The position numbers and the translations under genes are program-made. Positions 1,242 to 63,458 of a DNA stretch of 64,000 nt are shown one piece after another (position 1 is the stretch's first letter; each line of letters begins with the position of its first letter). The DNA is taken from positions 111,262 to 175,261 of the forward strand of contig OZ220743.1 of assembly GCA_965116965.1 (NCBI GenBank), in the 5' to 3' direction. The stretch is from Acidimicrobiales bacterium (GTDB lineage: Bacteria; Actinomycetota; Acidimicrobiia; Acidimicrobiales; Aldehydirespiratoraceae). The notes beneath the pieces were generated by a model, which saw nothing but the letters and a program-made list of their open reading frames with translations, was not told the origin of the DNA and ran no database searches.

Positions 1242-2393
1242 TCACGTCACCCTGCACGACTCCCGGTAGGAGTCCCGGTACGCAAGTTGGGCTTCGTCAT
1301 TTGCCAAGAACTCGGAGCCGACTGTTGCCCGGTTCGCTTCGAGTCGGGAGTTGGCGGTCTCATCGAATCTGAGCTTGTTTGCGGGTCTGGCGGCTTCGAG
1401 GCCGCTGTCGGCGTAGCGGCGATGCCTGTTCCAGTAGGCAGCGAGTACAACCTCTGCGACACCATCAGACTCGAAATTCTTGAAGGCTGCGAGGTCGCCA
1501 AAATGTGCATCGAAGGTGTCCCACGCACGGGAAGCTGCCACCAACTCGGATTCCTCCATCCGTTCATGCCAGGCCGTGTAGGTGATGCGATCCATCCCCT
1601 GAGCTAGCCGATCCATTCTCTCTGCTACTTCCTCTTCTATGCGGTCGCCTGTGTTGTGCAGGCTGATATCGGCATCGAACTGCTCGTCTTCCCTGATGAT
1701 CTGCTCGATCCAATCGACCACACCAGGAGCTAGCTCGGGAAACGCCACTGCGAGCCGTGTCTCCAACGTGTAGTTGAGGAGGTTCTTGCGCCGTTCGTCG
1801 TGCTCCTTCTCTGCGTCCCGGTGGACTTGCTGCGCTACTTCTACGGCTTCCTTCGCTTCCGCAATGTCCAGTTCGTCGGTGGCAGCAGCGAGCACGTCCT
1901 CGGCTGTTTGGAGTTCTGCTGCGGCTACATCAAGCGTCTCTGACGCGAAGTCGAAGCGATCCCAACGAATCTGCACCCTCCCGCACCACTCGAACCGGTC
2001 ACCCAACCGCTCCGGCTCGGGCACCGTCGTGGTCGTGGTCGTGGTTGTGGTGGCGACCGTCGTTGTGGTGGTGCTCTCCGGCTGGTCGGCTTGCTCCTGG
2101 CTTAGATTGGTCGTGGGGTCTTCCTGCCCCGCCTCAGGCTCCGAGACGGGATCAGGTTGCTCTTGCTGCTCTGCTTCCGGGATGGGGTCAGGCTCATCAG
2201 GAGGCTGCTGCTCAACCTCCGGGATGGGGTCAGGGGCGGCGGTGGTCTCCTGATCGGCTTCGGATGCGATGGTAGTCGTGGGGCTTGTGTCGGCTGTCTG
2301 TTCGGGCTGGGGGCTGTCATCACCCCCACAAGCTGTGGAAGCCAGAGAGACGACTAGGGCAGCTACTACGGGGCGGGCACGGAACGCTGGCAT
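1242..2393 (-). CDS. putative secreted lipoprotein with Thr/Pro/Glu-rich linker
   Basis: The N-terminus MPAFRARPVVAALVVSLASTACGG looks like a signal peptide with a lipobox-like Cys. It is followed by a low-complexity PEQ/poly-Thr linker and a roughly 250-aa acidic helical domain of unknown family. Confidence 0.6.
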   Translation of the reverse strand: MPAFRARPVVAALVVSLASTACGGDDSPQPEQTADTSPTTTIASEADQETTAAPDPIPEVEQQPPDEPDPIPEAEQQEQPDPVSEPEAGQEDPTTNLSQEQADQPESTTTTTVATTTTTTTTTVPEPERLGDRFEWCGRVQIRWDRFDFASETLDVAAAELQTAEDVLAAATDELDIAEAKEAVEVAQQVHRDAEKEHDERRKNLLNYTLETRLAVAFPELAPGVVDWIEQIIREDEQFDADISLHNTGDRIEEEVAERMDRLAQGMDRITYTAWHERMEESELVAASRAWDTFDAHFGDLAAFKNFESDGVAEVVLAAYWNRHRRYADSGLEAARPANKLRFDETANSRLEANRATVGSEFLANDEAQLAYRDSYRESCRVT

Positions 2394-24028: not shown

Positions 24029-24071
24029 CCCGTCGGGCGGCGGCGGGCTCTACAGCACGGCTGAGGACTAA
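24029..24071 (+). pseudogene. beta-lactamase-family serine hydrolase remnant, part left of the IS5 insertion
   Basis: Encodes SYPSGGGGLYSTAED. This continues in frame across the IS as GRFLQMILGRGSRNGVQVL (25052 onward), the GGGL.ST..D..RF motif region of class-C-type serine hydrolases. Confidence 0.55.
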
Positions 24072-25048
24072 GAGCGAGCGCGGATTGATCATGGGTGGGG
24101 GTTCCATCGGTCGCGGTGGTCGATGAGTTTGGCTGTGATAATGAGGGTTATGGCGAGGGAGAGTTGGGCTCGTCGGTGCTGGGGGCGGCGGTCTGTGTTG
24201 CGGCGCATCTGTCCGAAGTTCGACAGCCACGAGTTGGTGCGCTCGACGCTCCAGCGCAGCCCGAGGGGAGCCGTGTTGGGTTTGCGGCGCTTGGCGTGGC
24301 GGGGGCGCTTCTTCGCGCACACGACGTCGTCGATGCCCATCGCGGCGCACACCGCGCGCGCCGGCGCGTTGTCATATCCGCGGTCGAGGTGCAGGGTCTC
24401 CACGTCGGCTAGCAGCCCTTCGGGGGCGGCTCGCAGTGTGGGTTCCAACAAGATGGTGTCGTGTCGGTTGGCGCCGTCGGCGACCGCCGCGACCGGCACC
24501 CCGGCCCGGTCGGCCAATATGGACCACTTCCAGCCCAGTTTGGCCCGGTCAACAGGGCTTTTGGCGGTGCCTTCGCCGCCGCAGGGCGCCTTGTGGATCG
24601 ACCCGTCCACCGACACCTCGGACAAGTCGAGGCCCACGATGCGGTCATAGGCGCGCAGCGCCTCAGACTCCAGGCCCTCAAAGACTCCGGCCTCGACCCA
24701 CTCGTCGCGGCGGGCGCGCATAGTCGTGTCAGACACGCGCCCGCCCAACAGCCTCTCCGCGGTGACCCACGAGCAGCCCGTCACCAACCGGATCAAGATC
24801 CCCCAGAACACGATCTTGTCCGGTATCCGGCGCCGGTGCCCGCCGGTGGGATGGTTGTCCACAGGCACCGGCACAAGCGGCTCGATCGCCGCCCACACCG
24901 GATCCACCACTTCCGACTCCAACGCGCGCATGATGTGTCTGACCTCCACGGTCGTCTCGTTGACAGGACACCCGACATTCCAGTCGGGACAACCAGACGA
25001 CCCGTGGATGGTCAATCCGCGCGGCCTCTAAGGTCGCTTCCTCCAGAT
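24072..25048 (-). mobile_element. IS5-family insertion sequence (977 bp)
   Basis: Imperfect 21-bp terminal inverted repeats gagcgagcgcggattgatcat / gaggccgcgcggattgaccat (17/21). TAA (within CTAAG) is duplicated on both flanks. A single transposase ORF lies inside. Confidence 0.8.
24089..25015 (-). CDS. IS5-family DDE transposase
   Basis: RRIPDKIVFWGILIRLVTGCSWVTAERLL, VDGSIHKAPCGGEGTAKSPVDRAKLGWKWSILADRAGVPV, LHLDRGYDN and LRWSVERTNSWLSNFGQMRRNTDR are hallmark IS5/IS1182-type motifs. The start may be ATG 24931. Confidence 0.9.
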   Translation of the reverse strand: MTIHGSSGCPDWNVGCPVNETTVEVRHIMRALESEVVDPVWAAIEPLVPVPVDNHPTGGHRRRIPDKIVFWGILIRLVTGCSWVTAERLLGGRVSDTTMRARRDEWVEAGVFEGLESEALRAYDRIVGLDLSEVSVDGSIHKAPCGGEGTAKSPVDRAKLGWKWSILADRAGVPVAAVADGANRHDTILLEPTLRAAPEGLLADVETLHLDRGYDNAPARAVCAAMGIDDVVCAKKRPRHAKRRKPNTAPLGLRWSVERTNSWLSNFGQMRRNTDRRPQHRRAQLSLAITLIITAKLIDHRDRWNPHP

Positions 25049-32481: not shown

Positions 32482-32576
32482 AGGTCTGGCCGATCCCGGT
32501 GCCGCGCATCGTACCCCGGTCGAGAGTCGCAGACAGGACCGGCGAGCCCCCCAACCCGGAGGCCGAGCGGGCAGGC

Positions 32577-32815
32577 GCGCGAGTCGGGGCCCAAGCGGGC
32601 GAGGCCGTGGCCCGAGCAGCCCTCAGGTCGCGGGACGCGCGAGTCGGGGCCCAAGCGGGCGAGGCCGTACGGGCGAGCGGCCCTCAGGTCGCGGGACGCG
32701 CGAGTCGGGGCCCAAGCGGGCGAGGCCGTGGCCCGAGCAGCCCTCAGGTCGCGGGACGCGCGAGTCGGGGCCCAAGCGGGCGAGGCCGTACGGGCGAGCG
32801 GCCCTCAGGTCGCAG
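32577..32815 (+). repeat. tandem array, 4 units of 60/61 bp (two alternating variants), related to the dispersed intergenic element
   Basis: gcgcgagtcggggcccaagcgggcgaggccgtggcccgagcagccctcaggtcgcgggac alternates with a ...gtacgggcgagcggcc... variant. Unit starts are at 32577, 32637, 32698 and 32758. The last unit ends ...cgcagcgaacgagatcgggag, as in the single-copy elements. Confidence 0.9.
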
Positions 32816-33000
32816 CGAACGAGATCGGGAGACACTCCGCCGCACCGTGACTGGCTTCTGCGCGCCCGCGCGTGTTCTAGGGTGAAGACGATCCCGGAGC
32901 GGTTCTTCTTGGCGGCTTGCGCACGCCCGCGCGTGTTCTAGGGTCTTCGGCGGTGACTGACCAGCCAGAAGACCAGGCAGCCGGCCGCGCCGCACCGGCC

Positions 33001-34686: not shown

Positions 34687-34723
34687 AAGTAAGGCCAGAG
34701 GCCGAGCGGACAGGAAGAGACCC

Positions 34724-34816
34724 ATGAGCAGCTTCGCGAGGCAGACAGCGAGGCCGTGGCCCGAGCGGCCCGCGAGCGCAGCGAACAAGAGCGGGAGTGA
34801 CGCCCCATGGACATGA
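34724..34816 (+). CDS. 30-codon intercistronic mini-ORF carried by the dispersed element
   Basis: Encodes MSSFARQTARPWPERPASAANKSGSDAPWT. Its TGA (34814-34816) overlaps the second ATG (34813) of the downstream amidohydrolase as ATGA. It is homologous to the mini-ORF at 48705-48797. Confidence 0.45.
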   Translation: MSSFARQTARPWPERPASAANKSGSDAPWT

Positions 34817-36081
34817 ACGACATGATCCTGGTGAGCGTCGACGATCACTTGTGCGAGCCGCCTGACATGTTCGACCATCACCTGCCGGCCAAGTGGCGCG
34901 ACGAGGCCCCCAAGATCCTCCACACCGACAACGGCGACGACGTGTGGACCTTCAACGGCTCGATCATCCCCAACATCGGCCTCAACGCGGTGGCCGGCCG
35001 GCCCAAGGAGGAGTACGGCATCGAGCCGACCAGCTTCGACGAGATCCGGCCCGGCTGCTACAACGTCGGCGAGCGTGTCAAGGACATGAGCGCGGGCGGG
35101 GTGCTCGGATCGATGTGCTTCCCGTCGTTCCCCGGCTTCGCCGGGCGGCTGTTCGCCAACCACCCCGACAAGGACTTCGCGGCCGACCTGATCCGGGCCT
35201 ACAACGACTGGCACATCGGCGAGTGGTGCGGCGCCTACCCGGGCCGGTTCATCCCGATGGCGCTGCCCATGATCTGGTCGGCCGACGAGTGCGCGGCCGA
35301 GGTGCGCCGGGTGTCGGAGTTGGGCTGCCACTCGATGACCTTCACCGAGAACCCGGTCCCGCTGGGCCGGCCCAGCTTCCACGACCGCTACTGGGACCCG
35401 CTGTGGGAGGCCCTGGTGGACTGCGGGACGGTGCTGTCCATCCACCTGGGGTCGTCGGGCCAGATGGTGGTGAGCGCACCCGACGCGCCCATGGACGTGA
35501 TGATCCACATGCAGCCCATGAACACGTCGATCGCGGCCTCCGACCTCTTATGGTCGACGGTGCCGAGGCGGTATCCAGGGCTGAAGATCGCCCTGTCGGA
35601 GGGCGGGTCCGGCTGGGTTCCGTACTTCATGGACCGGGCCGACAAGACCTACGACATGCACCACCTGTGGACCGGCCAGTCCTTCGGCGACCTCAAGCCC
35701 AGCGACGTGTTCCGGCGCAACTTCCTCACCTGCTTCATCTCCGACCCGGTGGGGGTGGCCCTGCGTCACGAGATCGGCATCAACAACCTCTGCTGGGAGA
35801 TGGACTACCCCCACTCGGATTCGAACTGGCCCGAAGCCCCCGAGGAGCTGGTGGAGGTGTTCGAGGGCGTGCCCGACGCCGATATCGACCGGATCACCCA
35901 CCTCAACGCCATGGACTGGTTCAACTACGACCCGTTCTCGGTGCTGGACCGCTCAGACTGCACGGTGGGGGCGCTGCGGGCGTCGGTGGCCGGCCACGAC
36001 GTGTCGATCCAGTCGCGCGACACCGGCCGTCACGGCGGCAAGAACACGTCCCTCCAGGACTTCGCCGTCAAGACCCGCTGA
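34807..36081 (+). CDS. amidohydrolase-2 (ACMSD-like metal-dependent hydrolase/decarboxylase) family protein
   Basis: LVSVDDHLCEPPDMF..., MCFPSFPG..., WEMDYPHSDSNWP are typical amidohydrolase_2 blocks. The alternative start ATG 34813 is coupled to the mini-ORF stop. Confidence 0.8.
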   Translation: MDMNDMILVSVDDHLCEPPDMFDHHLPAKWRDEAPKILHTDNGDDVWTFNGSIIPNIGLNAVAGRPKEEYGIEPTSFDEIRPGCYNVGERVKDMSAGGVLGSMCFPSFPGFAGRLFANHPDKDFAADLIRAYNDWHIGEWCGAYPGRFIPMALPMIWSADECAAEVRRVSELGCHSMTFTENPVPLGRPSFHDRYWDPLWEALVDCGTVLSIHLGSSGQMVVSAPDAPMDVMIHMQPMNTSIAASDLLWSTVPRRYPGLKIALSEGGSGWVPYFMDRADKTYDMHHLWTGQSFGDLKPSDVFRRNFLTCFISDPVGVALRHEIGINNLCWEMDYPHSDSNWPEAPEELVEVFEGVPDADIDRITHLNAMDWFNYDPFSVLDRSDCTVGALRASVAGHDVSIQSRDTGRHGGKNTSLQDFAVKTR

Positions 36082-37481: not shown

Positions 37482-37841
37482 ATGGACCCGGCGATAACCG
37501 CCACCGTCATCGGCGTGCTGCTAACCGTCGCCTTCGGCGCCTTCGCTACCGCGTTCGCCTGGTTCAGGTCCGACGTGATCGCTCGCTTGGACAAGATGGA
37601 TGAGAAGTCAGACAGCCGGTTCGAGAAGATCGACGGCAGGTTCGAGAAGATCGACGGCAGGTTCGAAGAGATCGACGGCAGGTTCGAAGAGATCGACGGC
37701 AGGTTCGAGAAGATCGACGCCCGGTTCGAGAAGATCGACGCCCGGTTCGACCGGCTGGAGACGACCGTTCAGACCCTGATTGTGACGCTCGCCCAGAGAG
37801 GGCATTTGACGGACCCAGACGACTCGGGGCCCGAAGACTGA
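37482..37841 (+). CDS. small membrane-anchored coiled-coil protein with six and a half 21-bp (heptad) repeats
   Basis: MDPAITATVIGVLLTVAFGAFATAFAWFRSDV (one TM helix), then RFEKIDG x2, RFEEIDG x2, RFEKIDA x2, RFDRLET, and a C-terminal LAQRGHLTDP. It lies behind a roughly 90-bp AT-rich tract. TAACTT sits 7 nt upstream of the ATG, and I saw no Shine-Dalgarno. Confidence 0.65.
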   Translation: MDPAITATVIGVLLTVAFGAFATAFAWFRSDVIARLDKMDEKSDSRFEKIDGRFEKIDGRFEEIDGRFEEIDGRFEKIDARFEKIDARFDRLETTVQTLIVTLAQRGHLTDPDDSGPED

Positions 37842-37848
37842 AGTAGAT

Positions 37849-38025
37849 GTGATCCTTGCCGCCATCGTCATCGGCGGGCTGTACCCGGCCTCACTCGCTG
37901 CCTTCATCATTCAGTTCGTCCGGCTGCGGTCTGACATGCACGCGGGTTTCGACAGGCTCGAGACCCGCTTCGACGAACTGTTCGACCGGCTGGAGAGTCA
38001 GGTGCCGATGACTGACTCTCCGTAA
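37849..38025 (+). CDS. small membrane-anchored coiled-coil protein (58 aa, GTG start; below the ORF-track cutoff)
   Basis: My own translation: VILAAIVIGGLYPASLAAFIIQFVRLRSDMHAGFDRLETRFDELFDRLESQVPMTDSP. It has the same TM, LRSD and RLE layout as the neighbouring paralog. The 3' end overlaps the convergent LLM gene. Confidence 0.4.
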   Translation: MILAAIVIGGLYPASLAAFIIQFVRLRSDMHAGFDRLETRFDELFDRLESQVPMTDSP

Positions 38026-38909
38026 TGCTGGAGGGCCTCTAGGGAGCGGTTCAGGGAGTCGGCGGGGATGGGGGCCGCGCACCAGGTGACGCCTAGCTCG
38101 GCCAACTCCTGCAGGGCCTCCGAGTGGGCGTCGGGATTGAAGTCGTCGGCGACGGGGCTACCGCCGGCCAAGGTCATGAACGAGACGTCGATCTCTGCGG
38201 GGTCGCGACCGGCTGACTCGGCTTGACGCCATAGGTCGTCCAGCATCGCTCTCAAGTCGTCGAGTGTCTCCAGCGGGACCGTTCGGGCGGTGGTGGCCAG
38301 CCGTCGGGGGGCGGGGAACGGGACCCAACCGTCGGCGACGGTCGCGACACGCCGGCGGCTGAGGCGGCTGTTGCCTCCGATCCAGATCGGGATCGGCCGC
38401 TCCGGCTTGGGGTTGGCGGTCTGGCCCCGGGCCGTGAAGTTGCGGCCCTCGTAACTGAAGTCGTCGGTGGTCCACACGCCCCGCACGACCTCGATGGCCT
38501 CGTCGAACAGGTCGTTGCGCTCTTCGAAGTCCACTCCGAGGGCCCGGTACTCGCCCTTGAGGTAGCCGGTGCCCACGGCCAGCACGAACCGGCCGTCGGA
38601 CATAGCGTCGATGGTGGCCGCCGACTTAGCCACCAGGAACGGGTTGCGGTAGGGCAGCACCACCACGTTGGGGATCAACTGCACGCGCTCCGTGACCGCG
38701 GCCGTGAAGGCCAGCGCCGCGAAGGGATCGAGCGCGTCGTGGCCGCCGGCCGCCATCCAGCGGTGAGTCGGGGCGGGATGATCGGTGAAGCCAATCCCGT
38801 CGAAGCCGGCCTCCTCGGCCGCCCGGGCGAACTCCACGAGCCCTTGGCGCGTCGCGAACTCGGGGCTGCAGCGGCCCGCGGCCAGCGGGTACGTCACCGA
38901 GAACTTCAC
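37998..38909 (-). CDS. LLM-class F420-dependent oxidoreductase
   Basis: MKFSVTYPL..., FDGIGFTDHP, VVLPYRNPFLVAKSAATIDAMSDGRFVLAVGTGY and PIWIGGNS are luciferase-like monooxygenase family blocks. It uses a GTG start. Confidence 0.85.
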   Translation of the reverse strand: MKFSVTYPLAAGRCSPEFATRQGLVEFARAAEEAGFDGIGFTDHPAPTHRWMAAGGHDALDPFAALAFTAAVTERVQLIPNVVVLPYRNPFLVAKSAATIDAMSDGRFVLAVGTGYLKGEYRALGVDFEERNDLFDEAIEVVRGVWTTDDFSYEGRNFTARGQTANPKPERPIPIWIGGNSRLSRRRVATVADGWVPFPAPRRLATTARTVPLETLDDLRAMLDDLWRQAESAGRDPAEIDVSFMTLAGGSPVADDFNPDAHSEALQELAELGVTWCAAPIPADSLNRSLEALQHYGESVIGT

Positions 38910-39234
38910 GAACGAACCCTCCCGGCTGCCAACGCGAACCCGGCGATAGGCAAGAGCGCCACCGAGAACTTCACGAACGAACCCTCCCAGCTGCCAACGC
39001 GAACCCGGCGATAGGCAAGAGCGCCACCGAGAACTTCACGAACGAACCCTCCCAGCTGCCAACGCGAACCCGGCGATAGGCAAGAGCGCCACCGAGAACT
39101 TCACGAACGAACCCTCCCAGCTGCCAACGCGAACCCGGCGATAGGCAAGAGCGCCACCGAGAACGTCACGAACGAACTCTCCCAGCTCCCAGCTCGAACG
39201 CAACGGCAGGCACGAGCATCACCGAGAACTTCAC
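38906..39234 (-). repeat. tandem array of five 65-bp units, each a 22-codon mini-cistron (relay between the FGGY kinase stop and the LLM start)
   Basis: Unit starts (GTG) are at 39234, 39169, 39104, 39039 and 38974. Each reads GTG AAG/ACG TTC TCG GTG ... GGG AGG GTT CGT TCG TGA (MKFSVALLPIAGFALAAGRVRS). Each TGA overlaps the next GTG, and the final TGA overlaps the LLM GTG at 38909. Confidence 0.9.
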
Positions 39235-44810: not shown

Positions 44811-46394
44811 GTGAGCCGTGTGAGTCTCTGGGAGCGGCCGGACGTTCACGCCCGGCGCTGGTTCCTGCTCGGCGTGCTGAGCCTGACCCTGGTGCTGGTG
44901 GTCATGTCGGTCTCGGGCCTGAACGTGGCCCTGGCCACCTTGCAGCGGGATGTGGGTGTCACCGGGCCGCAGCTGCAGTGGATCGTCAACACCTACGCGC
45001 TCGCCTTCGGCGGGCTGCTGATGACCGGCGGAGCCATCGGCGACCGCTACGGCCGCAAGGGCGCCCTGCTCGGAGGCCTGCTCGTGTTCGGGCTCGGCGC
45101 GCTCCTCGGAGGCTTGGCCGACTCGGCCGAGGTCATCCTGGTCGCCCGGGGAGCCATGGGGGTGGCGGCCGCCTTCGTCATGCCGGCCACGCTGTCGCTG
45201 CTGATCGAGATCTTCCCGCCGCCGGAGAGGCCGACCGCCATCGCGGTGTGGTCGGGCTTCGCCGGGGGCGGCGCCGCCATCGGGCCCGCGCTGACCGGCC
45301 TGTTCGTGACCGGATGGTGGTTCGTGCCGTCGTGGGGCTGGGAGGCCGGCTTCCTCTACAACGTCCCGGTGGTGGCGGTGGTGATGGTCGCGGTGGTGCT
45401 GTGGCTGCCCCGATCCCGGGACGAGCACCCCCGGCATCTCGACCCTGCCGGAGCGGCGCTGTCCATCGTGGCCATGACCGCCCTCATCTACGGCATCATC
45501 GAGGGACCCGAGCAGGGCTGGACATCGGCACCGGTGCTCTCGGCCTTCGCGGTGGCGGTCGTCTTCGGTGCGGTCCTGCTGGGGTGGCAGCAGCGAGCCC
45601 GCCATCCGATGCTGCCGCTGGAACTGTTCGGCGACCGGCGCTTCAGCATCGGCTCGGCCGTGGTCACCATGACGTTCGTCGTGATGATCGGGTTCTGGTT
45701 CCTGTTCGCGCTCTACGTGCAGTTCGTCCTGGGATACTCCGCCCTGGAGGCGGGGCTGGCGACCATGCCGGAGGCGCTGGCGTCGATGGTTGTGGCCCCG
45801 TTCACCGCCCCGCTCGCCGCCAGGTACGGATCGCGCCGGATCATGGCGGTCGGCTTCGCGGTGTTGGCGCTCACATTCCTGCCGCTGGCGATGGTCGACA
45901 CCGATACCAGCTATTGGTTCCTTCTGGGACCGCTGGTGCTGGCCGGGGCGGGTCTCAGCCTGGCCATGACCCCGGCCACCAACGACATCATGGTCGCCAC
46001 TCCCTACGACAAGGCCGGCATCGGCTCGGCCGTCAACGACACCGCCCGCGAGCTGGGGGCGGCGCTGGGCATCGCCACGCTGGGCGCCCTGTCCACCTCG
46101 ATCTACCGCAGCACGGTGGACGTGGCCCAGCTACCGCCCGAGGTGGCCTCCCCGGCGGCCGAGTCGATGGGTGCGGCCATCGAGGCCGCCTACCAGCTGT
46201 CCCGATCGGGCACGCTGGGCGAGGCCGCGGCTCAGGCGACGATCACCGAGACGGGGCAGGCCTTCACCACTGCCTTCGCCCAGACGATGGCGATATCGGG
46301 CGTAGTGTCGGCCCTGGCCGCGGTCGCGCTGCTAGTCGGCCACCTCGCCGAGGCCCGCGCCCGCCCCAGAGGCCGACTGGTAGGCGGCGGATGA
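44811..46394 (+). CDS. MFS transporter, DHA2 (EmrB/QacA, 14-TM) type
   Basis: 527 aa with about 14 hydrophobic segments. Motif GAIGDRYGRKGALLGGL (the MFS motif A-like G-x-x-x-D-R-x-G-R-K). Confidence 0.85.
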   Translation: MSRVSLWERPDVHARRWFLLGVLSLTLVLVVMSVSGLNVALATLQRDVGVTGPQLQWIVNTYALAFGGLLMTGGAIGDRYGRKGALLGGLLVFGLGALLGGLADSAEVILVARGAMGVAAAFVMPATLSLLIEIFPPPERPTAIAVWSGFAGGGAAIGPALTGLFVTGWWFVPSWGWEAGFLYNVPVVAVVMVAVVLWLPRSRDEHPRHLDPAGAALSIVAMTALIYGIIEGPEQGWTSAPVLSAFAVAVVFGAVLLGWQQRARHPMLPLELFGDRRFSIGSAVVTMTFVVMIGFWFLFALYVQFVLGYSALEAGLATMPEALASMVVAPFTAPLAARYGSRRIMAVGFAVLALTFLPLAMVDTDTSYWFLLGPLVLAGAGLSLAMTPATNDIMVATPYDKAGIGSAVNDTARELGAALGIATLGALSTSIYRSTVDVAQLPPEVASPAAESMGAAIEAAYQLSRSGTLGEAAAQATITETGQAFTTAFAQTMAISGVVSALAAVALLVGHLAEARARPRGRLVGGG

Positions 46395-46556
46395 GCGGCG
46401 CCTCTCACCCACCCAGCGAGGCCGTGGCCCGAGCGGCCCGTGAGCGAAGCGAACAACAGCGGGAAGCAACATGCTTCATCGCGACGTCGTTCGATTCATT
46501 TGCACGGACCGGATAACCGTCGAACAACAGCGGGAAGCAACACGCCTCATCGCGAC
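46395..46556 (+). repeat. copy of the dispersed intergenic element plus an internal 36-nt direct duplication
   Basis: agcgaggccgtggcccgagcggcccgtgagcgaagcgaacaacagcggga, then cgaacaacagcgggaagcaaca(t/c)gc(t/c)tcatcgcgac at 46450 and 46521. Confidence 0.8.
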
Positions 46557-46564
46557 TCCGTCAT

Positions 46565-47777: not shown

Positions 47778-47878
47778 CTAGTGGTCCGTCGCTGAAATGA
47801 TCGGGGTGTCCGGAGCGCTCCCAAGCAGGGTCTCGGTCCTGCTGCGCTGCCCTAGCCATTTCGACGACACAGCTCTAG
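47778..47878 (+). mobile_element. 93-bp MITE-like element flanked by CTAG duplications (copy 2)
   Basis: See 13445-13545. It occupies almost the whole spacer between the thioesterase stop (the right-hand CTAG contains that stop codon) and the MFS start. Confidence 0.6.
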
Positions 47879-48705
47879 CCCAGGTCGATGGGACGGATCA
47901 TGCACTCCTGGGCGAAGGAGGCGAGCAGCGCACCGCCGGCGTCGAAGGCGTGGCCCTGGCCGAAGCCCCGGGCCCGGGCCAGCGTGGGCGAGTGCTGCGT
48001 GATCAGGCACCACTGGTCGAGGCGGAACGGGCGGTGGAACCAGACGGTGTGGCTGGTCACTGCGGTGTGGAGGGTGCGGTAGGAGTCGGCCTGGCTCACG
48101 CCCTCGACCGGGAGCAGCACGGTCCCGACGATGGTGAGGTCGGTGGCGTGGGCCAGCAGCGCCTGGTGAACGGCCGGGTCGTCGCCCAACCTCCGGTCCT
48201 CGACGCGGGTCCAGAAGGCGTAGCGGGGAGGAGCCGGTGCGGGGTCCCGCAGGTCTGCGCCGCCCGTCACCCTGGTCGTCCAGGGGATCATGGACATCTC
48301 CGTCGCGGCGGCCTCGTCGGGGTGGCCCGCCTCGGGGGCGGGCTTCTGATGCTCGAAGGCCGACGCGGGCTCCAGCGCGTGCATCGAGAGCAGGGCGGCG
48401 AAGATGGTCCTGCCATGCTGGCCGGCCCGGACCCGGCGCAGCGCGAAGGTCCGTCCGGTCTGGGTCTCCTCCACCTCGAACTCGATTGGATCGGTGGTCG
48501 AACCCTCCCGCGGGAACAGGCAGCTCAACGACTTGACAACCTTGCCCTCGGTGGTGGCCGCCCCCAGCGCGACCGCTTGGGCCAGTAGCTGGCCGCCGAA
48601 GATCCGGGGATAGTCCATCTCGATGTTGGGCGCGGTCCACACGCCCGGCCGCACCGGCTCCACTTCCAGGCAGCCGAGCAGGTCGTCGATGGTGATGACC
48701 GCCAT
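47875..48705 (-). CDS. acyl-CoA thioesterase II (TesB-like, double hot-dog)
   Basis: IFGGQLLAQAV..., SLSCLFPREG... and HTVWFHRPFRLDQW are characteristic of TesB-type thioesterases. Confidence 0.85.
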   Translation of the reverse strand: MAVITIDDLLGCLEVEPVRPGVWTAPNIEMDYPRIFGGQLLAQAVALGAATTEGKVVKSLSCLFPREGSTTDPIEFEVEETQTGRTFALRRVRAGQHGRTIFAALLSMHALEPASAFEHQKPAPEAGHPDEAAATEMSMIPWTTRVTGGADLRDPAPAPPRYAFWTRVEDRRLGDDPAVHQALLAHATDLTIVGTVLLPVEGVSQADSYRTLHTAVTSHTVWFHRPFRLDQWCLITQHSPTLARARGFGQGHAFDAGGALLASFAQECMIRPIDLG

Positions 48706-48797
48706 CAGGACGTCTCGGCGGTTTCATGCCCGCTCTTGTTCGCTGCGCTCACGGGCCGCTCGGGCCACGGCCTCGCTGAGCGTCTCGCCGGGATCAC
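48705..48797 (-). CDS. 30-codon intercistronic mini-ORF carried by the dispersed element
   Basis: Its GTG (48797-48795) overlaps the DUF35 stop (GTGA). It encodes VIPARRSARPWPERPVSAANKSGHETAETS. Its TGA (48707-48705) overlaps the thioesterase ATG at 48705 (TGATG). Confidence 0.5.
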   Translation of the reverse strand: MIPARRSARPWPERPVSAANKSGHETAETS

Positions 48798-49231
48798 CGG
48801 GCGTCACCGCCCAACCGCTCGGCCTCTGCAGGACGGAACAGCGGAACGTGCCACTCGCCGCTCTCCTCGAACAGCACCTCGACCCGCATCCCGATCTCGA
48901 CCTCGTCGATGTCGCAGTCCACGATGTTGGTGCCGATCCGCACCGTCGGATCCTCGTCGAGTTCGACGAGCGCGAAGACATAGGGCGGCGTGAACCCCGG
49001 GATCCACTCCTTGCGATTGATCGTGTACGTGGCCACGGTGCCGGTTCCGGCCACCGGCTCGGGGCCGACCCGGCGCGAGTGGCAGAAGGGGCAGGCCGGG
49101 CCGGGCGGGTGGACCCAGCGGGAGCATTCGCCGCAACGCTGGATCCTGAGCCGGCCGTCGGCCCCGGAACGCCAGTAGAACTCGCTCTCGGGCGAGGCCA
49201 GCACGAACCGGGGCGGGTTGTCCGCGCTCAT
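48794..49231 (-). CDS. Zn-ribbon/OB-fold protein (DUF35), thiolase partner
   Basis: Rubredoxin-like CGECSRWVHPPGPACPFC followed by an OB-fold region. It lies immediately downstream of an SCP-x-type thiolase. Confidence 0.85.
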   Translation of the reverse strand: MSADNPPRFVLASPESEFYWRSGADGRLRIQRCGECSRWVHPPGPACPFCHSRRVGPEPVAGTGTVATYTINRKEWIPGFTPPYVFALVELDEDPTVRIGTNIVDCDIDEVEIGMRVEVLFEESGEWHVPLFRPAEAERLGGDAR

Positions 49232-49511
49232 GACGGTCCCCTGGTCAGCCGGTTGTCCGCGCTCACGACAGGCACCGAGTCAGCCGGTTGTCCGCGCTCA
49301 TGACGGTCCCCTGGTCAGCCGGTTGTCGGCGCTCACGACAGGCACCGAGTCAGCCGGTTGTCCGCGCTCATGACGGTCCCCTGGTCAGCCGGTTGTCGGC
49401 GCTCACGACAGGCACCGAGTCAGCCGGTTGTCCGCGCTCATGACGGTCCCCTGGTCAGCCGGTTGTCGGCGCTCACGACAGGCACCGAGTCAGCCGGTTG
49501 TCGGCGCTCAT
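49228..49511 (-). repeat. tandem array of eight 35-bp units (four 70-bp double units), each a 12-codon mini-cistron (relay between the thiolase stop and the DUF35 start)
   Basis: Starts at 49511, 49476, 49441, 49406, 49371, 49336, 49301 and 49266 alternate ATG and GTG. ATG AGC GCS GAC AAC CGG CTG ACT CGG TGC CTG TCG TGA encodes MSADNRLTRCLS, and GTG AGC GCC GAC AAC CGG CTG ACC AGG GGA CCG TCA TGA encodes SADNRLTRGPS. Every stop overlaps the next start, and the last overlaps the DUF35 ATG at 49231. Confidence 0.9.
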
Positions 49512-62960: not shown

Positions 62961-63458
62961 GTGGACGCGATCACGCTCACGGACCTCTTGGCAGTCGTAG
63001 CCGCTGTCCTCGGCCCGACGCTGGCCGCCGTCTTGGCTTTGGCCCGTTACCAGCACAAGGACAGCATCGAGACCCACCGATTGATCGCAGAGGCCAGAGA
63101 CGAGTTCCGCACCGGGATCGCAGAGGCCAGAGACGAGTTCCGCACCGGGATCGCAGAGGCCAGAGACGAGTTCCGCACCGGGATCGCAGAGGCCAGAGAC
63201 GAGTTCCGCACCGGGATCGCAGAGGCCAGAGACGAAACCCGCCAACTGTTCGACAAGGCCGTCGACGAAACCCGCAACCTGTTCGGAGAGGCCAGGGACG
63301 AGAACCGCGAGCACCGCCGCGAGAACGGTGAGATCCTCAAGGAAGTGATCCGGAGCCTCGCCGACGCCCGCGAGAGGCTGGCGCGCATCGAGGGACACTT
63401 CGGCATCGGGGGGAGTCCGAGAGACGAGGATGGTCGAGGCACGGCTGACGCCGCCTGA
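62961..63458 (+). CDS. membrane-anchored coiled-coil protein with four and a half 33-bp (11-residue) repeats
   Basis: The GTG start gives VDAITLTDLLAVVAAVLGPTLAAVLALA (TM), then IAEARDEFRTG x4, IAEARDETRQLF..., and RERLARIEGHFGIGG. The start was chosen by analogy with the MDPAI... N-termini of the paralogs and by the promoter spacing. Confidence 0.55.
   Translation: MDAITLTDLLAVVAAVLGPTLAAVLALARYQHKDSIETHRLIAEARDEFRTGIAEARDEFRTGIAEARDEFRTGIAEARDEFRTGIAEARDETRQLFDKAVDETRNLFGEARDENREHRRENGEILKEVIRSLADARERLARIEGHFGIGGSPRDEDGRGTADAA

Follow-up and report, generated by a model that had tools for sequence, protein, structure and literature searches.

Mycobacterial interspersed repetitive units (MIRUs), as portrayed in passages of two later papers that draw on Supply et al. 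1997 (PMC12548453, PMC3184786), are intercistronic repeats carrying a small open reading frame (ORF) that overlaps the flanking stop and start codons and is thought to keep the neighbouring genes translationally coupled. Here we describe a comparable arrangement in a stretch of 64,000 nucleotides from an Acidimicrobiales bacterium (contig OZ220743.1, positions 111,262 to 175,261; hereafter the window), in which a 30-codon mini-ORF exactly bridges the genes for a DUF35 protein and an acyl-CoA thioesterase. Sequence comparison identifies the dispersed repeat through which this mini-ORF reads as a ~145-nt MITE (miniature inverted-repeat transposable element) of an IS5-family insertion sequence (IS), without transposase coding capacity. 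The best explanation of the locus as a whole, to which we assign a probability of roughly 0.5, is that a truncated MITE copy lies on an ancestral stop/start overlap and that the mini-ORF would serve as a ribosome relay across it.

The features of the focal junction are as follows.

48794..49231, minus strand: DUF35/ChsH2-like OB-fold gene (Pfam PF01796, OB_ChsH2_C, and PF12172, zf-ChsH2 zinc ribbon)
48705..48797, minus strand: mini-ORF of 30 codons, GTG to TGA, reading MIPARRSARPWPERPVSAANKSGHETAETS (from the sequence and the ORF list)
47875..48705, minus strand: acyl-CoA thioesterase gene (Pfam PF02551, Acyl_CoA_thio; PF20789, 4HBT_3; PF13622)
48707..48828, minus strand: truncated focal MITE copy, profile positions 2-115 of 146 (nhmmer, 86.2 bits, E=8.9e-25)
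48703..48714, minus strand: ancestral stop/start junction CGTCCTGATGGC, kept downstream of the insertion (from ortholog comparison)

Read on the minus strand, the DUF35 gene ends with GAC GCC CGG TGA, and its stop (48796-48794) is overlapped by the GTG of the mini-ORF (48797-48795) as GTGA. At the other end, the TGA of the mini-ORF (48707-48705) and the thioesterase ATG share base 48705 (TGATG, 48707-48703). With its start on one flanking codon and its stop on the other, the mini-ORF therefore occupies the whole 88-nt gap (48706..48793), and both of its ends show stop/start overlaps of -4 or -1 nt, as expected for a relay ORF. These details, together with the position of the leading motif gaggccgagcgg inside the 3' end of the DUF35 coding sequence (48826-48815), had been given in a preliminary description of the locus and agree base for base with the minus-strand sequence and the ORF list. 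The thioesterase ATG is conserved among orthologs, and no GGAGG-like motif was seen by eye in the 20 nt before it in the window or in three orthologous operons (L117, L118 and L119, where such labels denote metagenome stretches).

To trace the history of the site, orthologous thiolase-DUF35-thioesterase operons were retrieved by a metagenome scan with the thioesterase. L118 and L119, with thioesterases 81% and 72% identical and DUF35 proteins 91-92% identical to those of the window, carry no element. Their DUF35 genes end with CCG TCC TGA and GCC GCC TGA, respectively, and the thioesterase ATG overlaps the stop as TGATG. The more distant L120, L123 and L173 have DUF35-thioesterase gaps of 1-5 nt, and L129 has an extra gene between the two. 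In L117 (84% and 90% identical), a nearly full-length element (profile positions 2-137) stands at the same position as in the window; the two share a locus-specific variable segment, so that the insertion is common to them by descent. The junctions read ..GAACCGTCCTGATGGCT.. in L118, ..GGCCGCCTGATGGCG.. in L119 and ..GAGCCGTCCTGATGGCG.. in L117.

Both filled sites still have the old junction, ...CGTCCTGATGGCG, downstream of the element; in the empty sites, its TGA is the DUF35 stop. Since the empty L118 and L119 carry the plain TGATG that the filled sites retain, the 3' end of the mini-ORF is a relic of the ancestral junction. Its 5' end lies at a TGA internal to the element, preceded by G in the window and overlapped as TGATG in L117. 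From about the GAG GCC codons at 48826, the DUF35 gene is a MITE-derived reading that ends at this internal TGA; correspondingly, the proteins end in FRPAEAERLGGDAR in the window and FRPAEAERAGGDS in L117, and in FRPIAAEPS and FRPIAAEAA at the empty sites. In L117, a bridging ORF of 45 codons (1285..1422, MIPARRSARPWPERPVSAANKSGSDTAATRWVLACSRRSRTVEPS) runs in the same frame with TGATG overlaps at both ends. That copy is 45 nt longer than the window copy, the difference lying at the right arm and being a multiple of 3.

In the history that these comparisons establish, an ancestor common with the L117 organism received the element in the last DUF35 codons, just upstream of the TGATG overlap. The DUF35 gene now reads about 11 codons of the element and ends at the internal TGA, and a GTG overlapping this TGA opens a frame through the rest of the element to the old TGA, still overlapping the thioesterase ATG. 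The mini-ORF thus combines a 5' end made by the element and a 3' end inherited from the operon.

The repeat itself has a 46-nt core that occurs 3 times in the window (0.00 expected from 100 shuffles). At least 116 stretches of genome DNA contain an exact 23-mer of this core, and among the matches listed all come from Acidimicrobiia metagenome-assembled genomes (MAGs) with the labels Acidimicrobiia, -ales or -aceae, Candidatus Aldehydirespirator(-aceae) and Ca. Poriferisodalis, one of them being labelled Actinomycetota only. Complete genomes with the element include OZ244832.1, OZ242033.1 and OY759762.1. A profile built from the window copies gave 170 matches, and a full-length profile of 146 positions gave 180 matches, corresponding to 161 units. 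Most copies extend ~50 nt past ...AACAAGAGCGGG, making a full unit of ~145 nt. The focal copy has the left terminal repeat GAGGCCGAGCGGTTGGG and an exact match to the conserved core GAGGCCGTGGCCCGAGCGGCCCGTGAGCGCAGCGAACAAGAGCGGG and lacks the right arm; given the further ~50 nt of canonical copies, it is 3'-truncated.

The MITE assignment follows from the terminal inverted repeats, the statistics of T-N-A duplications and the match of the termini to a complete IS5-family element. The inverted repeats read GAGGCCGAGCGGAT(A/T)G..., and the left arm AGAGGCCGAGCGGATAGG, taken as its reverse complement, resembles the right arm CCTATCCGCGC.CGCTCT. Of the cells in the terminal helix, 70.6% are paired, and 9 pairs are altered on both sides, with covariation between the arms at columns 16/135 (GC 15, AU 12); cells changed on both sides number 36 against 24.9 +/- 3.5, a value reached in 0/500 shuffles. 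RNAalifold alone missed the terminal stem, which was imposed from one sequence before pairs were counted, so the pair count leans towards structure. In 13/69 copies, the same 3-mer, usually T-N-A, stands to the left of GAGG and behind the right arm (4.9 +/- 2.05 by permutation, p ~0.001). A ~40-nt minimal derivative consisting of the two terminal repeats only, CTAGAGGCCGAGCGACGAGGGAGCCATTTGCGCTCGCTCTAGG, is present in L001 (6170-6225) with CTAG on either side. The complete element is found in the window itself, and none was present in the 116 retrieved loci.

24071..25029, minus strand: complete IS5-family insertion sequence of 959 bp, likely the autonomous relative, flanked by TAA/TAA
24089..25027: transposase ORF of this insertion sequence (Pfam DUF4096, 1.5e-11; DDE_Tnp_1, 6.4e-9)

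The transposase scores 152 bits against NCBIfam NF033580 (IS5 family transposase; cut-off 110). The insertion sequence has an ABC-permease gene on one side and a beta-lactamase-like fragment on the other, and its terminal repeats GAGCGAGCGCGGATTGATCAT and GAGGCCGCGCGGATTGACCAT align with the MITE termini; the alignment is confined to the termini, the MITE interior being unrelated. Placement in an IS5 subgroup by the T-N-A duplication would follow ISfinder conventions.

In its length of ~145 nt, the lack of a transposase gene, the termini shared with a complete IS5-family element in the window, the 3-bp T-N-A flanking repeat, the many dispersed intergenic copies and the presence or absence at orthologous sites, the family resembles other IS5-type MITEs. 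Insertion polymorphism between relatives is seen at the empty sites of L118, L119 and L039. The family differs from other IS5-type MITEs in the unrelated interior, in a ~48-nt stretch that is unusually invariant across Acidimicrobiia species and in tandem expansion. Like repetitive extragenic palindromes (REPs) and bacterial interspersed mosaic elements (BIMEs), and like the ERIC (enterobacterial repetitive intergenic consensus), Correia and RUP (repeat unit of pneumococcus) repeats, the copies are GC-rich, hairpin-forming and intergenic, often stand just after stop codons and may affect mRNA. REPs are palindromes of 20-40 nt moved by RAYT Y1 transposases without target duplications. Membership in the REP/RAYT group was rejected, as our repeat is ~145 nt in size, its terminal repeats are long, its target duplication is of 3 bp, and its partner is an IS5 element of the DDE type. 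A tRNA-like origin, considered for the likeness of GGCCGAGCGG to a tRNA D-arm, was likewise discarded, ARAGORN finding no tRNA in the elements. A literature search on the element sequence and on MITEs in Acidimicrobiia found no paper, and we regard the locus as another case of known kinds (an IS5-type MITE and MIRU-like coupling) in a MITE family that we did not find described.

The window holds 4 MITE copies in 64 kb. Besides the focal copy, these are the following, of which copies 3 and 4, as well as the 3' truncation of the focal copy, had gone unnoticed before.

34697..34832, plus strand: MITE copy 1, profile positions 2-130, between acyl-CoA synthetase and amidohydrolase genes (profile match)
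46368..46505, plus strand: MITE copy 3, profile positions 2-135, in the convergent gap between two MFS transporter genes (profile match)
32559..32880, plus strand: MITE copy 4, expanded internally by a 60-bp x 3.9 tandem repeat, between the divergent P450 and acyl-CoA synthetase genes (profile match)

The mini-ORF of copy 1 (34724..34816) ends in a TGA that overlaps the second ATG of the amidohydrolase gene (34813) as ATGA; its 5' end does not overlap the upstream stop. At copy 3, an ORF overlapping the upstream gene's stop as ATGA reads another frame of the core. Given their convergent and divergent gaps, copies 3 and 4 cannot relay, copy 3 having no cistron downstream of it. Across all genomes, 159/161 element units are intergenic, and those with flanking genes within 300 nt are distributed as follows.

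Co-directional genes, element in sense: 58 units (58-62 across tallies)
Co-directional genes, element in antisense: 25 units (25-28 across tallies)
Convergent gap: 25 units (25-26 across tallies)
Divergent gap: 22 units (22-31 across tallies)

The bias of 58 sense to 25 antisense is significant (p=4e-4). In 21/61 cases a co-oriented upstream gene has its stop codon exactly at the left edge, and in 10/28 a convergent gene has its stop at the right edge; since T-N-A targets at 68% GC are largely stop codons (TAA, TGA), the element often abuts gene ends.

Another reading is that the mini-ORF encodes a conserved micro-protein with the core ARPWPERP-x-SAANKSG, made from many loci. The likeness of the peptides speaks for it: the preliminary description had counted 17 identical residues between the mini-ORFs of the focal copy and copy 1, which BLASTP reproduces as 17/22 aligned (48705..48797 against 34724..34816), and the window and L117 agree in all of the first 23 residues. 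The codon pattern speaks against it. In the 24 nt after the anchor, 123 copies show 26, 52 and 14 substitutions at codon positions 1, 2 and 3 of the peptide frame, leaving third positions the least variable; as substitutions avoid these positions, the conservation is at the nucleotide level. Synonymous and non-synonymous codon changes number 13 and 64 in the peptide frame, compared with 45/25 and 24/65 in the other two, the value of 45 being due to one hypervariable base. The copies have no common stop of the peptide frame, indels in the left region are not multiples of 3, a common variant from GTGAG to TCAGGT shifts the frame, and roughly every second copy lies antisense to a co-directional gene pair or away from such pairs. 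The mini-ORF peptide is not under selection, and the micro-protein reading is already contradicted; we hold it to be highly improbable. The earlier caution that conserved nucleotides are no proof of selection acting on the peptide was thus well placed, and the comparison of synonymous and non-synonymous changes that had been proposed there came out against such selection.

A conserved ORF through the whole element, ending at the TAA, TAG or TGA of the right end, was also considered and rejected, as the peptide-frame stops are scattered; the right-end stop is more readily understood as the T-N-A flank or as a stop codon that the target originally had. The 48-nt core has a hypervariable base, the 7th after GAGGCCGTGGCCCGAGCGGCCCG (48744, minus strand; C 96, A 26, G 11 and T 3 of 136 copies).

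The conservation raises another explanation, namely that the core is a functional structured RNA or a protein-binding DNA site (an mRNA stabiliser, a processing site or an operator), to which the mini-ORF would be irrelevant. The core of ~48 nt is nearly invariant across many species-level genomes, also in copies not chosen by the 23-mer; between the window and L117, the stretch from GATCCCGG to AGCGGG differs at 1/67 nt, compared with 22-24% at third positions of the flanking genes. The orientation bias given above fits such a role, as does the folding of canonical intergenic copies, which is far stronger than that of shuffles (z of -4.3 and -5.0). In the operon copies, by contrast, the strong hairpin is lost (z of -1.1 and +0.25), and the window copies show weak RNA structure over the whole element (z about -1 or weaker). 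Searches of Rfam at gathering scores gave no match in the window or on the elements of 18 loci, and none on the L013 element at E up to 10. Covariation is limited to the terminal arms, which are also the repeats recognised by the transposase, and the uniformity could stem from gene conversion among copies or from recent spread. The uniform core may therefore come from a function of its own or from homogenisation among copies. Moreover, a functional core would add to the MITE explanation without being a true alternative to it, and it says nothing of the bridge; as an account of the locus we consider it unlikely.

Returning to the reading of the focal mini-ORF as a relay, several results weigh against it. 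A strict bridging ORF is present in 2/56 sense co-directional copies, and one within +/-12 nt in 13/56, whereas element-free co-directional gaps of the same genomes reach 8/117 (strict) and 26/117 (loose) at 40-100 nt, and 4/47 and 10/47 at 101-180 nt. Bridging is not a property of the family and is no commoner than in element-free gaps (~7%), and the exactness of the bridge alone is not beyond chance. Descending from one inherited insertion, the window and L117 are not independent cases, and their 45-nt length difference had a 1-in-3 chance of being in frame. Around the focal copy, no T-N-A duplication can be recognised. Finally, gene contexts and start positions come from our own simple codon-bias gene caller.

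The preliminary description had presented the repeat as a relay element, to be refuted if relatives without it kept the same gene order and expression and if other copies lay in random frames. L118 and L119 do keep the thiolase-DUF35-thioesterase order without the element, copies occur in convergent, divergent and antisense contexts, and exact bridging is limited to the 2/56 above; on these grounds the element as a class is a MITE and not a relay element. The relay thus lacks support as the element's function or as a peptide that is conserved, and is partly supported as a locus-specific, MIRU-like consequence of a MITE insertion.

For this locus, translation of the thioesterase, which has no evident ribosome-binding site, may have depended ancestrally on termination-reinitiation coupling, in which case insertion variants would have been tolerated only if they brought a terminating ribosome to the TGATG. 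The mini-ORF would then act as a ribosome relay, as has been proposed for mycobacterial MIRUs, its peptide would be functionless, and the sequence conservation would belong to the DNA or RNA of the element. We put the odds of this set of steps (coupling dependence, selective tolerance and relay) at about even, and regard the relay as a reasonable, unproven reading of this mini-ORF. In its favour, L117 keeps a bridging ORF in the same frame despite the 45-nt length difference, the operon copies are without the strong hairpin of canonical copies, and mini-ORFs chained through NTGA overlaps likewise fill the operon's thiolase-DUF35 junction, with a third chain elsewhere in the window. These points fit selection for uninterrupted termination-reinitiation, and none is decisive. 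The two chains are the following.

49232..49507, minus strand: thiolase-DUF35 junction, 35-nt tandem units (Tandem Repeats Finder: 70 nt x 4.5) with 8 mini-ORFs (from the sequence and Tandem Repeats Finder)
38910..39230, minus strand: third chain, 65-nt units x5.2, from the stop of an FGGY-kinase gene to the start of gene 37998..38909 (tandem repeat)

Each mini-ORF at 49232..49507 has twelve residues (13 codons with the stop) and reads MSADNRLTRCLS or VSADNRLTRGPS; successive overlaps are ATGA or GTGA, and the last is with the DUF35 ATG. The ancestral thiolase-DUF35 junction is a plain ATGA overlap in L118, L120, L129 and L173, and the 35-nt units look like duplications of it. L117 has a single 16-residue mini-ORF with GTGA at either end at this junction. 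The third chain comprises five mini-ORFs of 22 residues (23 codons with the stop), VKFSVALLPIAGFALAAGRVRS, overlapped in series by GTGA, each starting with the five codons that open the downstream gene. Both unit lengths (35 and 65 nt) are 2 mod 3; with units of any other length class, an NTGA chain would fall out of register. Given three chained-ORF junctions within 64 kb, we suggest tentatively that in this Acidimicrobiia lineage insertions and duplications at junctions might survive only as NTGA/TGATG mini-ORF chains that hand on ribosomes.

The same MITE insertion could also have left the bridging ORF as a neutral by-product, with the thioesterase translated in another way. At 68% GC, stops are rare and any TGA after A, G or T gives an overlapping start, and the ancestral TGATG simply lies downstream; the frequency of exact bridging in element-free gaps without enrichment where the element is present, the lack of peptide selection and the single ancestral event behind the window and L117 agree with this. 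A by-product accounts less readily for exact overlaps that two genomes show at both operon junctions, with a third chain elsewhere in the window, for tandem units that are both of the length class an NTGA chain requires, for the length difference that stays in frame and for the fact that no ribosome-binding motif was seen before the thioesterase ATG. We see a neutral origin as possible and somewhat doubtful. 

By its mode of spread the element is an IS5-type MITE, whereas in relation to the operon MIRUs are the nearest precedent. The likeness to MIRUs is that of a gene-oriented repeat between operon cistrons whose small ORF overlaps both flanking codons, as seen in the focal copy and L117, with orthologous sites both empty and filled, terminal repeats that are imperfect, and tandem arrays (focal copy, L117 and the neighbouring junction). 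This likeness is one of described features. The differences lie in the host, which is Acidimicrobiia and not Mycobacterium, as the listed 23-mer matches indicate; in the co-oriented intercistronic siting, which here belongs to the focal copy and not to a family found in all contexts and both orientations; in the overlapping small ORF, confined to the focal locus and L117 and at 2/56 not above element-free gaps in the family; and in the autonomous IS5 partner, which is identifiable here. Membership in the MIRU family is therefore not supported, the host being different and the family-level features being absent.

For annotation, these results mean that the ARPWPERP...SAANKSG 'peptide' is one reading frame of a MITE and not a gene family, and that part of this DUF35 C-terminus is derived from a transposon. 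The locus offers a clean contrast between empty and filled sites, in which a mobile element splits a coupled gene pair and the chain of overlapping ORFs stays uninterrupted, and together with the two nearby junction-derived chains it makes a testable non-mycobacterial parallel to MIRUs. If insertions and duplications in this lineage did survive only as such chains, this would be an independent non-mycobacterial counterpart of the logic of MIRU-VNTR (variable number of tandem repeats) loci and a test bed for the number of successive termination-reinitiation events (8 in a row at 49232-49507). The main interest is in the cluster of chained mini-ORFs in one window. The MITE family, abundant in uncultured Acidimicrobiia, might be useful as a marker or have a hidden function.

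Expansion of element pieces is seen at several places. The interior of copy 4 consists of four 60-nt units in two alternating variants (121-nt period, 100% identical), and its right end CGCCCGCGCGTGTTCTAGGGT recurs once ~60 nt downstream (32925-32944). The orthologous P450/acyl-CoA-synthetase gap in L039 has neither the element nor its repeats and is too diverged to fix the insertion point of copy 4. Downstream of copy 3, a ~38-nt element piece (gaacaacagcgggaagcaaca.gc.tcatcgcgac) at 46448-46485 is directly repeated at 46521-46558 after a 35-nt spacer. Tandem arrays of element pieces or whole elements are also present in L113 (4882-5190), L072 (3878-4247), L081 (1553-1727) and L069 (4300-4581), with periods of ~44, 94 and 138 nt, so that array formation is general in the family. 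Further tandem repeats in the window, apparently within predicted genes, are found at 63083-63306 (33-nt units, 4.6 copies, 100% identity) and 37602-37750 (21-nt x 7.1). In L013, an Acidimicrobiia MAG, positions 2091-2190 of the plus strand match Rfam PYLIS_3, the pyrrolysine insertion sequence of mttB, with 44.9 bits (gathering score 38).

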